DNA from: a virus
Lineage: Duplodnaviria; Heunggongvirae; Uroviricota; Caudoviricetes
DNA length: 64,000 nt
Virus record (IMG/VR): IMGVR_UViG_2872147552_000001
Direction: 5' to 3' (one strand)
Position 1 is the first letter of the stretch. Every line of letters begins with the position of its first letter. Below are positions 6,217 to 60,404 of this stretch, one piece after another. The notes under the pieces are model-generated. The model was not told the origin of the DNA. It did not search any database and saw nothing but the letters and a program-made list of their open reading frames with translations. Both the position numbers and the translations under genes were made by a program.

Positions 6217-6233
6217 CGTAAGTATGTACTTAC
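6217..6233 (-). promoter_or_regulatory. class B palindrome (TAAGTA..TACTTA type)
   Basis: cgtaagtatgtacttac about 45 nt upstream of the start. Confidence 0.4.
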
Positions 6234-6300
6234 AATACAAAAAAGCCCCGTAAGGATGGCGGGGCTGTCGTACTGTCGACTAATTACCACTTGCACATTA

Positions 6301-6612
6301 TCAGGCTATTGCCATCACTGATGCTCTCTGAATTTCTTGCTGGGCCACGCGGTTAACTTCCATCAAAGCCAGTTCGAGCTGATGTTCCGGCCACATTCTT
6401 TGAAATGCCATCCAGCCTTTTCCACGCTGGCGACGAACATTCATTACATAACGAGTAAAGGTGTTTTTATCGAAAGACACCGCTGTTTCACGGAACAGAC
6501 GAATAGAGGTTCCATTGGCAACGATGTCCAGCAAAGTTAATTGAGCAACCAGCGCAGGCTTCTCTTTTCTCTTCTGGTCTTTGTCCAGACCAAGAACCAA
6601 TGATTTTTTCAT
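6301..6612 (-). CDS. hypothetical protein (103 aa)
   Basis: Start at ATG with GGAG RBS (MKKSLVLG...). Confidence 0.45.
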   Translation of the reverse strand: MKKSLVLGLDKDQKRKEKPALVAQLTLLDIVANGTSIRLFRETAVSFDKNTFTRYVMNVRRQRGKGWMAFQRMWPEHQLELALMEVNRVAQQEIQRASVMAIA

Positions 6613-6623
6613 CACAACTCCGT

Positions 6624-6637
6624 AAACAACTTGTTTT
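6624..6637 (-). promoter_or_regulatory. class A palindromic leader motif
   Basis: aaacaacttgtttt 12 nt upstream of the start. Confidence 0.45.
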
Positions 6638-6737
6638 CTCAATGGCGTAAATAATACCAGTAAGAAAACGGCTACAAAGCATAATGATCAGGTGCATGAT
6701 CGATATGCAGGTTCTTCCCTGCGGCTACATATTAAGT

Positions 6738-6756
6738 TAAGCCAGCAATGCTGGCT
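6738..6756 (-). terminator. hairpin (variant of GGCCACC family)
   Basis: aagccagcaatgctggctt downstream of the gene ending at 6767. Confidence 0.35.
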
Positions 6757-6766
6757 TTGGTTGGGG

Positions 6767-7096
6767 TTACTCGAATACTTCAAGAAACTCCTGAACGTCC
6801 CAATGCTGGACGAGGTGAAGATAGACCTTAGAAATCACGTCATTTTCGCTATCGCATGTGAAGTAGTACTTCTGGCTGCGGTTGTATGTGTCCACACAAA
6901 ATTCGCTCATATCCATAAAGTCAGCATCTTCACCCATGTCGCAAATCATCAAAGCAGGTGCGTCATCACGAGTCATCAGCTCAAGCACCCACCGCGAATT
7001 GATCAGAGTGGAAGACCAACCTTCTAACTCATAAAACTGATCAAACTCTTTTTGAGTTAATTTCTTGATTTGGTTGATGTCGATATTTGCAAACAT
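6767..7096 (-). CDS. hypothetical protein (109 aa, acidic)
   Basis: Start at ATG with AAGGA RBS (MFANIDINQ...). Confidence 0.45.
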   Translation of the reverse strand: MFANIDINQIKKLTQKEFDQFYELEGWSSTLINSRWVLELMTRDDAPALMICDMGEDADFMDMSEFCVDTYNRSQKYYFTCDSENDVISKVYLHLVQHWDVQEFLEVFE

Positions 7097-7108
7097 AAAG
7101 CAATCCTT

Positions 7109-7122
7109 AAACAACTTGTTTT
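7109..7122 (-). promoter_or_regulatory. class A palindromic leader motif
   Basis: aaacaacttgtttt followed by GATAAT-like -10. Confidence 0.45.
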
Positions 7123-57667: not shown

Positions 57668-57724
57668 GCGCTTTTCCTTTGTTCTCTAATGAGCGTTCAA
57701 GTTCTTATATAAATATACCATTAA

Positions 57725-57747
57725 CTATGGTAAGTAGTTACTTATCG
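57725..57747 (-). promoter_or_regulatory. class B palindrome
   Basis: ctatggtaagtagttacttatcg. Confidence 0.4.
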
Positions 57748-57762
57748 TTAAGGCTGTTTTAA

Positions 57763-59871
57763 TTACTTCAAAATGATACGAGATAGTTCAGTAACTACAG
57801 ATGAACCAAGACTATCAACACTAGTTACCAGGGCATGATTTGCGTAAAATCTCTCCGGTGCATCAGTCATGATGCCAATTGCCATCAAATCAATGTCAGT
57901 CTGCGTTTCAATTTGCTTCGTAACCGAACGCAAATGGGCGTCAAAACCTCTCCCAACAGCCCACGGCGCGCCATCGCTCAGAACAAGCATGATCTTCCTG
58001 TCCTCCAAGCGACCGGAAAATAACGATGCAAGGCTGGCTATGCTTTCACCATCCACGTTATTAAGAAGTGGGAATGTGTAGCCTACGCACCCCATACGTG
58101 AGCGAACTTCGCGAGAATTTGCTTTTTCATTCCAATTTTTGATGATAGGTAGCATTAAAGATTCAAAGCGAGAGAACTCATATTTGATAGCCTTAAGTTC
58201 TCCTGCTGCCATATGACTGCCAAATGTAGTGAAGCCGGTGATAATGTTGGGAACATTTATTCGATCAAGTGCATCGGCGATGGTATATGCACTTGCAAGA
58301 GCTAGTTTTATCGTTTCGCCACTCATTGAACCCGATAAATCAATCACTTGTTGAACACAGGCGTTAACGGCTTTAGATTCTTCTTTTTTACGAAACACGC
58401 GATCATCATTCATTGTTAATCTGTAGATACTTGAACCATGAATGCGCCCCCGACGCTGGCCAGGTATAAACTGAACTCTGTTTCTGCTTGCTATTGCACG
58501 TTCCAGGTCTTTTGCCAGCGTCGACGAAACACCTGACGAAAGGTGCTTTTCAATATATTTGTCGAAGAGTTGGTTGCCTTCAGGAACGATGCGATAACGG
58601 CTGATTGGATATCCACCTAAATCAATATCGGAGAATGTTTTAATAAGCCGTTTGATATGGGCTTCTGCCTGATCAATCGAGCCGATGAAGTCGTATGAGC
58701 GATTGTATGGCCTGTATTCGCTTTTCGAGCTTTCTGTTAACTCGCTTTTAATCGTTTCGGATAGCGCATCTTCTGTCATGCCTCCGACTTCATCTTCCAT
58801 GCTATCCAACTCCTCTAAAGCCTCTTCCAGACTCATTTTTGACGGAGTTGGAATGTCTGAAGAGCCGTCTTCTGTCGTTTTTCTTTTTTCGTGGTCAGCG
58901 GTTAATGATTCTGACGCCGCGTTATCAGAAGCATCAGAATCTGATACCGCTTTATCATTTTCTGTATCATCGAATATTGTTTCTGATGATTCAGGATTAT
59001 CTGAATCATCACTGTCGTTATTATCATGTTTGTGCTTACTATGTGACTCTGATTTAATAGATTTGTGATTATCTAACGATGAGGGTGTCTCATGATCTTC
59101 GTTGTCTTCATTGTTTTCTCCAGAGGCATCCGTCTGGTCAGCGTCTGAAGGATCGGAAGTTTTTCCCGGAGCTGACTCCTTACCTTTGCTTTCACTTTCA
59201 GTGTCTTTGAGGATCTTAGCTATGGTCGCAGCCACCTTTACACAATCCTCGGTGCAAGACATGTTACGCACGGCCACATCGATACCATGTTCTTTTAATA
59301 ATGAAATTGGTTTCTCAATGACAGGCCAATATTCATCCATGAAATCTACGAACGGTGCTTGGCCATCCCAGGCTCTTACAACCGGACAGAGAAAGAAGTT
59401 TAGAAAAAGCGCGCGCTGATCTTTGCCACAATAAGCAATAGCCTCTGAAGCCTTTGGTTTAAAGACTTTTTCGATTATAAGGCGCTGAGTTGCCATCAGA
59501 TTACGTCTTGTTCCGTTAAAGACCTGACCCATTTTTCGCTCGATGAACACGTCTTCTAAGGCATTCCATAGCGACCAGGAAGGAACGCGTCCTTTTTCTC
59601 TCATTTTGTTGGACACACGAATATCGGTAAACAAAATGTGAGCAACCTCATGATCGAGAAATCCGCGCACAGCATTCATCAATGCCGGTGTTGCGTTATC
59701 CGGGATTGATGGGATGTTTACGAGAATTGGCTCTCCATCATCGTTATAGCGTACATAAGCGTCGTCCCCTCGTTCTGCAACAGGGATGTTTTTACCTGAA
59801 AGGAGAGCGACTACTCGTTTTACACTGTCACGGAAGTCCTGAACCTCTTTGATGGAACGTTTTTTAGACAT
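57763..59871 (-). CDS. von Willebrand factor A domain protein, CobT-like
   Basis: C-terminal MIDAS motif DLSGSMSG; long Ser/Asp/Glu-rich linker. Confidence 0.55.
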   Translation of the reverse strand: MSKKRSIKEVQDFRDSVKRVVALLSGKNIPVAERGDDAYVRYNDDGEPILVNIPSIPDNATPALMNAVRGFLDHEVAHILFTDIRVSNKMREKGRVPSWSLWNALEDVFIERKMGQVFNGTRRNLMATQRLIIEKVFKPKASEAIAYCGKDQRALFLNFFLCPVVRAWDGQAPFVDFMDEYWPVIEKPISLLKEHGIDVAVRNMSCTEDCVKVAATIAKILKDTESESKGKESAPGKTSDPSDADQTDASGENNEDNEDHETPSSLDNHKSIKSESHSKHKHDNNDSDDSDNPESSETIFDDTENDKAVSDSDASDNAASESLTADHEKRKTTEDGSSDIPTPSKMSLEEALEELDSMEDEVGGMTEDALSETIKSELTESSKSEYRPYNRSYDFIGSIDQAEAHIKRLIKTFSDIDLGGYPISRYRIVPEGNQLFDKYIEKHLSSGVSSTLAKDLERAIASRNRVQFIPGQRRGRIHGSSIYRLTMNDDRVFRKKEESKAVNACVQQVIDLSGSMSGETIKLALASAYTIADALDRINVPNIITGFTTFGSHMAAGELKAIKYEFSRFESLMLPIIKNWNEKANSREVRSRMGCVGYTFPLLNNVDGESIASLASLFSGRLEDRKIMLVLSDGAPWAVGRGFDAHLRSVTKQIETQTDIDLMAIGIMTDAPERFYANHALVTSVDSLGSSVVTELSRIILK

Positions 59872-59888
59872 GGCTAATCCTTTGTTAT

Positions 59889-59903
59889 GAAAACAAATTA
59901 TTT
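59889..59903 (-). promoter_or_regulatory. class A palindromic leader motif
   Basis: gaaaacaaattattt. Confidence 0.4.
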
Positions 59904-59969
59904 ACTAGTGTGTTTAATGTAGCACTGCGCGAACAGGGAACTAAGCCATTCGCGCAGGGAGAAGAGGGG

Positions 59970-60182
59970 TTAACAGATTCTGACGGCTAAAGACCCGGAG
60001 CCGGTATTGAGAAGCGTGAAGCGTTTGTTGTTAAGTTCGAATATAAAGCCAGTTGTGTCATTCACACCAACCTGAATCTGCTCATTCGGTAGATCGGTGA
60101 GGATGTCAGCTACACACTCATCAGCTAATTTCTGTACGTGTCCGATCTCAAGAGCGATTAGGCTGGAAATAGTGGTTTTCAT
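59970..60182 (-). CDS. hypothetical protein (70 aa)
   Basis: ORF divergent from XRE regulator. Confidence 0.4.
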   Translation of the reverse strand: MKTTISSLIALEIGHVQKLADECVADILTDLPNEQIQVGVNDTTGFIFELNNKRFTLLNTGSGSLAVRIC

Positions 60183-60385
60183 TCAATCAATCCATTCTAA
60201 CTTATACTATGGTAAGGAATACTACTAAAATTTGTATCAATACTGAATACATTCATATCATATGCAAGTTGATTTTCTTACCTATTTTGGGCTAGTTTTT
60301 CTCCATGCAATGGCCTTTAACCGGTCTTTTAAGTGCCTATCGAAAAAAATGATAATAGCTTTACAACCCTAACCTTTGATGTAAT

Positions 60386-60404
60386 ATCGGTAAGCACTTA
60401 CCAG
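60386..60404 (+). promoter_or_regulatory. class B palindrome in regulator's own upstream region
   Basis: atcGGTAAGCACTTACCag about 30 nt before the regulator ATG. Confidence 0.45.

Follow-up and report, generated by a model that had tools for sequence, protein, structure and literature searches.

Which protein binds a palindrome that recurs upstream of many genes of a plasmid prophage, and which genes does it control? The question is raised by a 64,000-nucleotide (nt) stretch of a Caudoviricetes genome (IMG/VR record IMGVR_UViG_2872147552_000001), the whole of which is called the window here. The palindrome, referred to as the class B dyad, occurs upstream of replication and nucleotide-metabolism genes and also close to a gene for an XRE-type helix-turn-helix (HTH) protein, which the first-pass annotation had put forward as the binder in an autoregulated circuit controlling the replication module. 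We propose that the class B dyads are the operators of a dispersed immunity regulon that silences the lytic programme and that they are bound by the XRE repressor of the element itself, a reading to which we give a probability of about 0.6. When the dyads are regarded as operators of an element-encoded repressor and XRE is not named, our confidence is higher. In the proposed mechanism, a dimer of the XRE repressor would bind the 20-bp palindrome in the plasmid prophage. The dyads, about 28 per genome, would be located at or beside the core promoters of almost all lytic transcription units, so that binding would block RNA polymerase and keep the replication, nucleotide-metabolism, recombination, structural, and lysis genes off. 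A dyad over the repressor's own start site would provide negative autoregulation.

Judged by nucleotide identity, the window is part of a phage-plasmid of the SSU5/pHCM2 type. A 12-kb piece of it was 98.4% identical to Escherichia phage Cyrano (pLF82, from E. coli LF82), and the identity of this piece to Salmonella phage SSU5 and to related Klebsiella phage-plasmids was about 77%. A window coordinate w corresponds approximately to Cyrano position 103833-w on the opposite strand. For the scan of Cyrano, positions 1 to 92,733 of its 108,379 bp were rebuilt, and the window supplied the remainder up to about position 103,800. Because most genes between 13 and 60 kb of the window are on the minus strand, "upstream" mostly means toward higher coordinates.

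The class B dyad and its distribution

The class B unit is a contiguous 20-bp palindrome, ATAGGTAAGTACTTACCTAT, made of the half-sites ATAGGTAAGT and ACTTACCTAT without a spacer, and the palindrome extends weakly to 26 bp. An earlier description had included a central "N" spacer. The repetition of the palindrome at the places named was borne out, whereas the spacer was not; the exact pattern with a spacer and perfect arms had no match in the window. With up to 4 mismatches to the consensus, 9 sites were found in the window, versus 0 in shuffled sequences; with up to 5 mismatches, there were 12 sites, versus 0.15. Sites were scored with an iterated palindromic position weight matrix (PWM), and the window was found to contain 12 to 13 copies, all of them intergenic. 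The strong sites all preceded minus-strand genes, and the XRE-proximal site at 60386 was listed beside them. Weaker PWM sites were found at 31352, 25721, 44735, and 59057.

The full Cyrano genome carries about 28 class B dyads, and 22 of 23 Cyrano sites were intergenic although the sequence is 89% coding. When the PWM from the window was applied outside it, a dyad was found in the 26-nt gap between the large terminase and portal genes. Other Cyrano dyads flank the capsid locus, one before the gene that precedes the major capsid gene and one after the capsid gene, and still others lie between tail genes, before the tail fibre gene, before the holin gene, and before the helicase/primase and ligase blocks. 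Since the same dyad also occurs between structural and lysis genes, the regulon is the whole lytic programme, as expected of a prophage master repressor, and the idea of a circuit specific to replication and nucleotide metabolism was not supported. The dyads were also better conserved than their surroundings. Orthologous dyads of Cyrano and SSU5 were 87% identical, compared with 67% for the 40-nt flanks on each side (Fisher p = 3e-12), and their sequence is therefore under selection. As the first-pass annotation had suggested, we scanned related replicons for the motif, and the same consensus was present at orthologous positions in SSU5, pHCM2, and two Klebsiella lineages.

The individual sites agree with the genes named from the sequence, namely those for thymidylate synthase, nrdA, sbcD, the adenine methyltransferase, the gp32-like single-stranded DNA-binding protein (SSB), the AAA+ ATPase, and two small membrane-protein operons. 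The dyad at 26380 to 26399 (PWM score, 25.5; 2 mismatches) lies 11 nt upstream of the adenine methyltransferase ATG (26368, minus strand), and that at 31215 to 31234 (22.7) lies 11 nt upstream of the start of the thymidylate synthase gene (31203, minus strand; ThyX in the Cyrano annotation), near which a second, weak copy was found (31352 to 31371; 17.1). The copy at 35925 to 35944 (26.1) is inside the nrdA promoter (minus strand), and the one at 40609 to 40628 (24.3) is 112 nt upstream of sbcD (minus strand). The two small membrane-protein operons, both on the minus strand, have dyads at 44408 to 44427, overlapping the promoter, and at 46361 to 46380, where the dyad fills the promoter spacer and the -10 hexamer just after a terminator (46396 to 46416). 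The site at 51147 to 51166 (23.1) precedes the gp32-like SSB gene (minus strand) and is overlapped by a promoter-like site (51172 to 51144), and the site at 57726 to 57745 (18.3), with orthologues in SSU5, pHCM2, and Klebsiella, precedes the CobS/MoxR-like AAA+ ATPase gene (minus strand). Further copies were found at 19195 to 19214 (22.3; Cyrano orthologue at 84620), 41 nt upstream of an Ead/Ea22-like gene (18449 to 19153, minus strand), and at 24164 to 24183 (21.9), upstream of a gene at 23540 to 24034 (minus strand), the latter copy being identical to that of SSU5 at 18 of 20 positions. A weaker dyad at 25339 to 25358 (17.4), upstream of a small CYRAN_81-like gene, has a degenerate left arm on the plus strand (the right arm in the direction of transcription); its SSU5 orthologue is a better palindrome. 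The copy near position 6217 did not hold as a class B member. At 6218 to 6237, the arms GTAAGT and ACTTAC are separated by four extra central bases (GTAAGT-ATGT-ACTTAC), the score of 14.3 is within the range of shuffled sequences, and its membership in the family is doubtful.

Two PWM hits in Cyrano, at 31179 and 78095, were rejected as dyads because they are the A+T-rich loops of long terminator hairpins. These terminator-like hairpins (Cyrano 31160 to 31230 and 78080 to 78150, the latter corresponding approximately to window 25700 to 25760) have common arms, CCTGCTTCTGT.../...ACAGAAGCAGG, and form a separate small repeat family whose loops mimic the dyad in PWM scans.

Probable protein-binding sites over core promoters

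To distinguish a protein-binding site from a base-paired structure, changes in the arms were analyzed at 55 sites from five genomes. The deviating arm-position pairs comprised 154 single changes, by which pairing is broken or weakened, and double changes that either preserved a Watson-Crick pair (13) or did not (11); on average, 7 of the 10 pairs were formed per site. What is kept is thus base identity rather than pairing, as is characteristic of a site bound by a protein. The compensatory pairing, G+C-rich stem, and T-tract of an RNA hairpin or intrinsic terminator were not found in the dyads.

The flanks of the dyads are also symmetric. In 20 Cyrano sites, a TATcAT -10 element appeared to be oriented toward the gene, but this orientation was gone when 48 sites from four genomes were pooled. 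In this set, AT was present at -3/-2 in 14 sites and at +22/+23 in 18 sites (p = 0.5). Because the mirror positions are equally biased, TATcAT extends the palindrome weakly and is no promoter element with an orientation of its own.

Several dyads overlap conserved or predicted sigma-70 promoters at different registers. At nrdA (TTGATA-17-TAACAT; 35947 to 35919, minus strand; hexamers conserved in SSU5), the dyad spans approximately -32 to -13. It spans approximately -29 to -10 at the promoter TTGAAA-17-TATTAT (46386 to 46358, minus strand), which is kept as TTGAAA-17-TATnAT in Cyrano, SSU5, and pHCM2, and approximately -18 to +2 at the promoter TTTACA-17-TAGTAT (44444 to 44416, minus strand), which is kept together with its dyad in SSU5, pHCM2, and Klebsiella. 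At the predicted XRE promoter (TTTACA-16-TAATAT; 60360 to 60387, plus strand), the dyad lies at approximately -8 to +12, and the promoter block CTTTACAA..TGTAATATCgGTAAGyACTTACCA is kept in three lineages. The register of the dyad relative to conserved -35/-10 pairs thus varies by about 25 bp. An independent consensus scan between 43 and 61 kb gave a similar picture, with dyads overlapping 4 of 6 minus-strand promoter-like sites and also the XRE promoter. Several dyads were within near-consensus sigma-70 promoters (10/12 and 9/12 matches), and the remaining ones had only weak predicted promoters. The best plus-strand hit of the same scan (TTGACA-17-TAGAAT) precedes hicA, which has no dyad and is expressed in the lysogen.

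Such a shifting position over core promoters points to a repressor operator, since activator sites and promoter consensus elements need a fixed geometry. The possibility that the dyads are part of a -35/-10 consensus only, raised in the first-pass annotation as what would speak against its proposal, is at odds with their symmetric flanks and with their variable register over sigma-70 hexamers. Conservation beyond that of the flanks, uncompensated arm changes, and flank symmetry together support regulatory protein-binding sites. A repressor operator accounts for these patterns better than does a hairpin, an activator site, or a promoter consensus. Where the gap between genes is very short, some sites may be roadblocks and not promoter operators.

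The state of the genes in the lysogen is consistent with such a role. In the transcriptome of the Cyrano lysogen determined by RNA sequencing (RNA-seq), genes behind dyads, including those behind near-consensus dyad promoters, were at a background level of 5 to 15 normalised reads, whereas the XRE gene (CYRAN_45) had about 96 normalised reads and the dyad-less toxin-antitoxin, partition, and repA genes were expressed (S1 table of PMC9928086). The authors of that study listed CYRAN_45 as the putative master repressor (PMC9928086). Cyrano is inducible with ciprofloxacin.

The XRE protein as candidate binder

The XRE-type HTH protein has 128 amino acids, is encoded at 60434 to 60820 on the plus strand, and is identical to CYRAN_45, annotated as a "putative repressor." As had been noted, a dyad lies about 30 nt upstream of its gene. 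This copy (60386 to 60405; core GGTAAGCACTTACC) ends 28 nt before the ATG at 60434 and is placed over the predicted start site of the XRE promoter; only its 14-bp core matches the consensus. The position is compatible with autoregulation as proposed, whereas the limitation of the circuit to the replication module was not borne out. The gene occupies an immunity position, adjoining the integrase gene and divergent from the early operon. Of all the proteins scanned, only XRE was expressed in the lysogen and also had a recognisable HTH; the other lysogen-expressed products were toxin-antitoxin, partition, UmuD-like, or FljA-like proteins or had no family match. The other annotated "regulators" of Cyrano were examined as well and set aside: CYRAN_114 is FljA-like, CYRAN_98 is UmuD-like, and CYRAN_37, CYRAN_46, and CYRAN_123 had no family match.

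The protein matched phrog_8, "transcriptional regulator" (E = 1.3e-11). As modelled by AlphaFold (predicted local distance difference test score, 73.5), it appears to have a generic XRE-type fold, to which C-terminal helices are added, and it lacks a peptidase domain. When solved structures were searched by sequence, no match was found. Outside the family, no relatives were found in species-representative genomes, and homologues in the protein database were mostly on contigs of about 100 to 116 kb, the size of these phage-plasmids, with no other context seen. The sequence family thus appears to be confined to SSU5-like phage-plasmids, where it is widespread; a tblastn search gave 994 plasmid records with an XRE homologue.

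A comparison between lineages links the protein to the dyads and the dyads to the element. Each lineage has its own form of the dyad at the XRE promoter, including upstream of XRE in two Acinetobacter elements (L008 and L010) and in an E. coli element (L012). The helix-3 segment GYKNxNNLSLIKSG is nearly invariant in enterobacterial homologues that are only 56 to 70% identical overall, and the operator is likewise invariant. Two relatives from A. baumannii with the same gene order carry different dyad variants, ATCAGTCAGTACTGACTGAT in one and ATTAGTAAGCGCTTACTAAT in the other, both of which keep the architecture AT-NN-GT-N-AG-N | N-CT-N-AC-NN-AT. As these two elements share a host species, the binder must be encoded by the element. 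Of the Acinetobacter XRE proteins, that of L010, the most divergent XRE, had 30% identity in the A2 alignment (38% over 55% of the query by tblastn), and that of L008 had 40% (47.8% over 71%). In the one variant with a rewritten helix (KYQNQVSF; protein P0032), a TATGTA half-site was present in 4 of 5 dyads within 20 kb, and for three of these dyads there are orthologous ones in the other lineages. A T at half-site position 4 was present in 4 of 10 P0032 half-sites versus 10 of 130 elsewhere (p = 0.0095, in a post hoc test on 5 sites). This parallel shift of helix and half-site supports a link between XRE and the dyads, in a suggestive way only.

Phage SSU5 provides a natural deletion. It is 94 to 97% identical to pHCM2 except for the absence of 7.5 kb (SSU5 NC_018843, at about 42,640 to 42,673; pHCM2 [L011], 19506 to 27043), which covers the CYRAN_46 homologue, XRE, the integrase, glutaredoxin, phoH, and neighbouring genes; XRE was not found elsewhere in SSU5. 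One account states that SSU5 is virulent (PMC5427195). The loss of XRE thus goes with the loss of lysogeny, and the deletion probably explains the virulence of this phage. Because the dyad-linked genes work in SSU5 without XRE, XRE is excluded as an essential activator. Taken together, gene position, expression in the lysogen, helix conservation, and the SSU5 deletion make XRE the best candidate for the binder, as had been proposed. We infer that XRE is likely the protein that binds the dyads and that the effect of binding would be repression.

A number of observations weigh against this assignment. The Pfam HTH_19 match of XRE is 19.7 bits, below the cut-off of 30.2, and the fold matches of the model are generic, with C-proteins, HigA, SinR, and the N-terminal domains of the 434 and P22 c2 repressors found only at E values of at least 5e-3. 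Without an S24 domain, a route for SOS induction is not accounted for by the repressor itself. The co-variation of XRE and dyad comes from a small number of lineages that have diverged in all their proteins, the P0032 shift was seen post hoc on 5 sites, and the dyad of L010 is closer to the enterobacterial dyad than is that of L008, so that there is no simple helix-to-base code. Most dyads have no recognisable -35 hexamer, which would also fit activator-dependent promoters. A single type of operator for early and late genes does not account for temporal control. Finally, the published RNA-seq table, which covers the lysogen and macrophages, gave no significant upward expression step across dyads in the planned one-sided test (MB6 p = 0.29); a downward step, for which no test had been planned, appeared in two conditions and was partly due to the strongly expressed par/relE operon adjoining silent genes.

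The region around the XRE gene has further features. Between CYRAN_46 and the XRE promoter (60183 to 60385), there is a perfect left half-site, ATAGGTAAG (60276 to 60285, minus strand), followed after 7 bp by ACTTGCATAT, which makes a split dyad that is not conserved in pHCM2, and a conserved TAGTAT -10-like block precedes CYRAN_46. On the other side of XRE, the window at 60815 to 63600 and Cyrano at 39000 to 42200 differ. The window has four tRNA genes there (Ser, Thr, Tyr, and Asn; 62943 to 63596), and CYRAN_43, which has by far the top read count in the Cyrano lysogen (about 7,000 normalised reads), is absent from the genome of the window.

Alternative explanations and related immunity systems

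Among the alternatives, one keeps the dyads as operators and changes the protein. The binder would be another element-encoded regulator, for instance a second repressor or a Cro-like or lytic-cycle protein that has escaped recognition; it would shut off the XRE promoter as well, with XRE acting at few sites or elsewhere. A dyad over the XRE start site would suit a lytic switch of the anti-repressor type equally well, many small open reading frames (ORFs) have no detectable family, and the co-variation of the dyad with XRE is weak. Such a protein must, however, occur in the lysogen, since the genes behind the dyads are silent there despite several near-consensus promoters, and the only recognisable HTH protein expressed there, among those scanned, is XRE. 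Two neighbours fit poorly in addition: CYRAN_43 is missing from the genome of the window, in which the dyads are present, and CYRAN_46, the divergent neighbour of XRE, has no family match and is deleted in the viable SSU5. We consider a binder other than XRE possible but clearly the weaker assignment. Binding by a host transcription factor is very unlikely. The conservation of the motif across enterobacterial hosts is not specific to this explanation, to our knowledge the motif resembles no site of an E. coli regulator, the LexA boxes of the element are distinct from the dyads, and the different dyad variants in two elements of one host species, A. baumannii, are not what a host protein would produce.

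The remaining alternatives concern the function of the sites. The dyad could be a promoter-specificity element through which a phage activator, in the manner of Lpa of P1, or an alternative sigma factor recruits polymerase to promoters without a -35 hexamer. Such hexamers are lacking at most sites, TATnAT overlaps the end of many dyads, the absence of an activator would equally explain the silence of the lysogen, and the Acinetobacter relatives encode a protein of the sigma-70 family. That protein (weak Sigma70_r2 match; L010 15101 to 15766 in A. baumannii pDD520 and L008 14900 to 15583) is encoded between the CobS-like ATPase gene and dnaE, a position at which the enterobacterial elements hold only a 67-amino-acid ORF (window 56226 to 56429), and no homologue was found by tblastn in Cyrano 1 to 92,733, the window, SSU5 30 to 80 kb, or two Klebsiella loci. 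The geometry of the dyads speaks against such an element: TATnAT is mirrored on the other side without orientation toward the gene, the register is not fixed, several sites are in near-consensus sigma-70 promoters that should need no activator, and one dyad lies downstream of the -10 hexamer of the XRE promoter, which is active in the lysogen. Palindromic dimer sites centred near -20 normally occlude polymerase. An activator or sigma factor is therefore an unlikely explanation. Less likely still is that the palindromes act as structures, either as RNA hairpins in processing, stability, or termination or as DNA cruciforms. Their intergenic position and the distance of 1 to 12 nt of some of them from start codons would suit this idea, but the excess of uncompensated over compensated arm changes shows conservation of base identity rather than of pairing, the arms are A+T-rich with no loop and no T-tract, and the true terminators near dyads are separate, G+C-rich hairpins.

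Two LexA boxes were found in the window. One, CACTGTATAAGTAAACAGTA (61947 to 61962), is near consensus and lies about 30 nt upstream of the start of the integrase gene (60815 to 61918, minus strand), and a LexA box is also present 17 to 30 nt upstream of the integrase gene in Cyrano, pHCM2, two Klebsiella lineages, and the E. coli L012 element. The integrase gene is convergent with XRE, overlaps its 3' end by 6 bp, and has the same direction as the early operon. The other box, TACTGTTCATTTATACAGTA (13628 to 13643), is just upstream of a UmuD-like S24 gene (13220 to 13609, minus strand), which is annotated as a "LexA-like peptidase" in Cyrano and is well expressed in the lysogen. SOS-driven transcription from the integrase promoter could cross XRE in antisense and continue into the lytic genes, which would offer a way to induce an element whose repressor has no cleavage domain. 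A more specific version of the proposal, which we put forward tentatively and consider improbable in its full form, is that a single non-cleavable XRE repressor silences a 108-kb element via about 28 symmetric sites, which would be partly promoter operators and partly intergenic roadblocks (a palindromic counterpart of stoperators), and that induction would come from a LexA-controlled integrase promoter transcribing antisense through XRE into the early lytic operon and not from cleavage.

A second repeated dyad, AAACAAnTTGTT(T), is probably what the first-pass annotation called class A. Its copies are at 4487, 4972, 5722, 6625, 7110, 9744, 9795, 13733, 22546, 23275, 33490, and 45220 of the window, with none near XRE. 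On the minus strand, about 9 copies are located about 14 nt after a conserved GATAAT-like hexamer (...GATAATtaACACCAaCAAGA-AAACAAnTTGTT) and 15 to 30 nt before a start codon, which places them in the 5' leader. Because the Cyrano genes of these regions (CYRAN_98 and several of CYRAN_102 to CYRAN_111) are expressed in the lysogen, this dyad looks like a separate regulon or leader element.

The arrangement of the class B dyads resembles that of known immunity systems in different respects. The closest likeness is to phage P1, also a plasmid prophage, whose C1 repressor has 22 dispersed operators (PMC8546580). In both cases, one repressor would serve many operators over a genome of about 100 kb, and the P1 operators overlap the promoters of separate lytic operons, including that of the repressor itself. 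Several elements of this logic were found here, namely many copies in promoter regions, overlap with core promoters without a fixed register, a candidate repressor that is on while its proposed targets are off, and a site at its own promoter. The operators of P1 are asymmetric 17-mers (ATTGCTCTAATAAATTT), however, in contrast to the 20-bp palindromes of this element, and C1 is not an XRE-type HTH protein; no similarity between the two was seen, XRE matching phrog_8 and generic XRE folds. The element would thus work like P1 immunity without being a member of the C1 family. The late genes of P1 use a separate activator, Lpa, whereas here the same dyad also precedes late genes. Lpa-dependent late promoters have a palindrome near -22 and a -10 hexamer but no -35 hexamer. 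Here, too, the palindrome extends over the spacer that precedes a -10-like hexamer where no -35 hexamer is present; unlike the Lpa sites, the dyads have no fixed register, orientation, or restriction to late genes.

The number and distribution of the sites recall mycobacteriophage L5 (Cluster A), in which the repressor gp71 has 20 to 30 sites, placed in short gaps between genes of both the early and the late regions (PMC6550527). The element resembles L5 in this number and placement of sites, consensus and repressor seem to diverge jointly from one lineage to the next, and some Cyrano sites in very short gaps without a recognisable promoter, such as the 26-nt gap between the terminase and portal genes, could be roadblocks. 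Stoperators differ in being asymmetric 13-mers that are oriented with transcription and mostly not associated with promoters, whereas the dyads are symmetric including their flanks and many of them overlap sigma-70 promoters; the protein families are unrelated. With the lambdoid repressors (CI, 434, and P22 C2), the system shares a probable XRE-type HTH fold, palindromic operators of 14 to 20 bp, divergence of the repressor gene from the early operon, and an operator at the promoter of that gene. It differs from them in having about 28 dispersed single sites instead of the two clusters OL and OR and in a repressor that lacks the S24 autocleavage domain, the lambdoid repressors being cleavable.

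In the literature searched, we found no description of the lysis-lysogeny switch of SSU5 or pHCM2 or of these sites. Phage-plasmids of this type are common and occur in E. coli, Salmonella Typhi (pHCM2), Yersinia pestis, Klebsiella, Enterobacter, and Acinetobacter. An operator consensus together with a candidate repressor would make their switch directly testable, and since the dyad variants differ between lineages, immunity groups should be predictable from sequence. If XRE is the binder, the design of many dispersed operators known from P1 and L5 would extend to a third, unrelated family of repressors.

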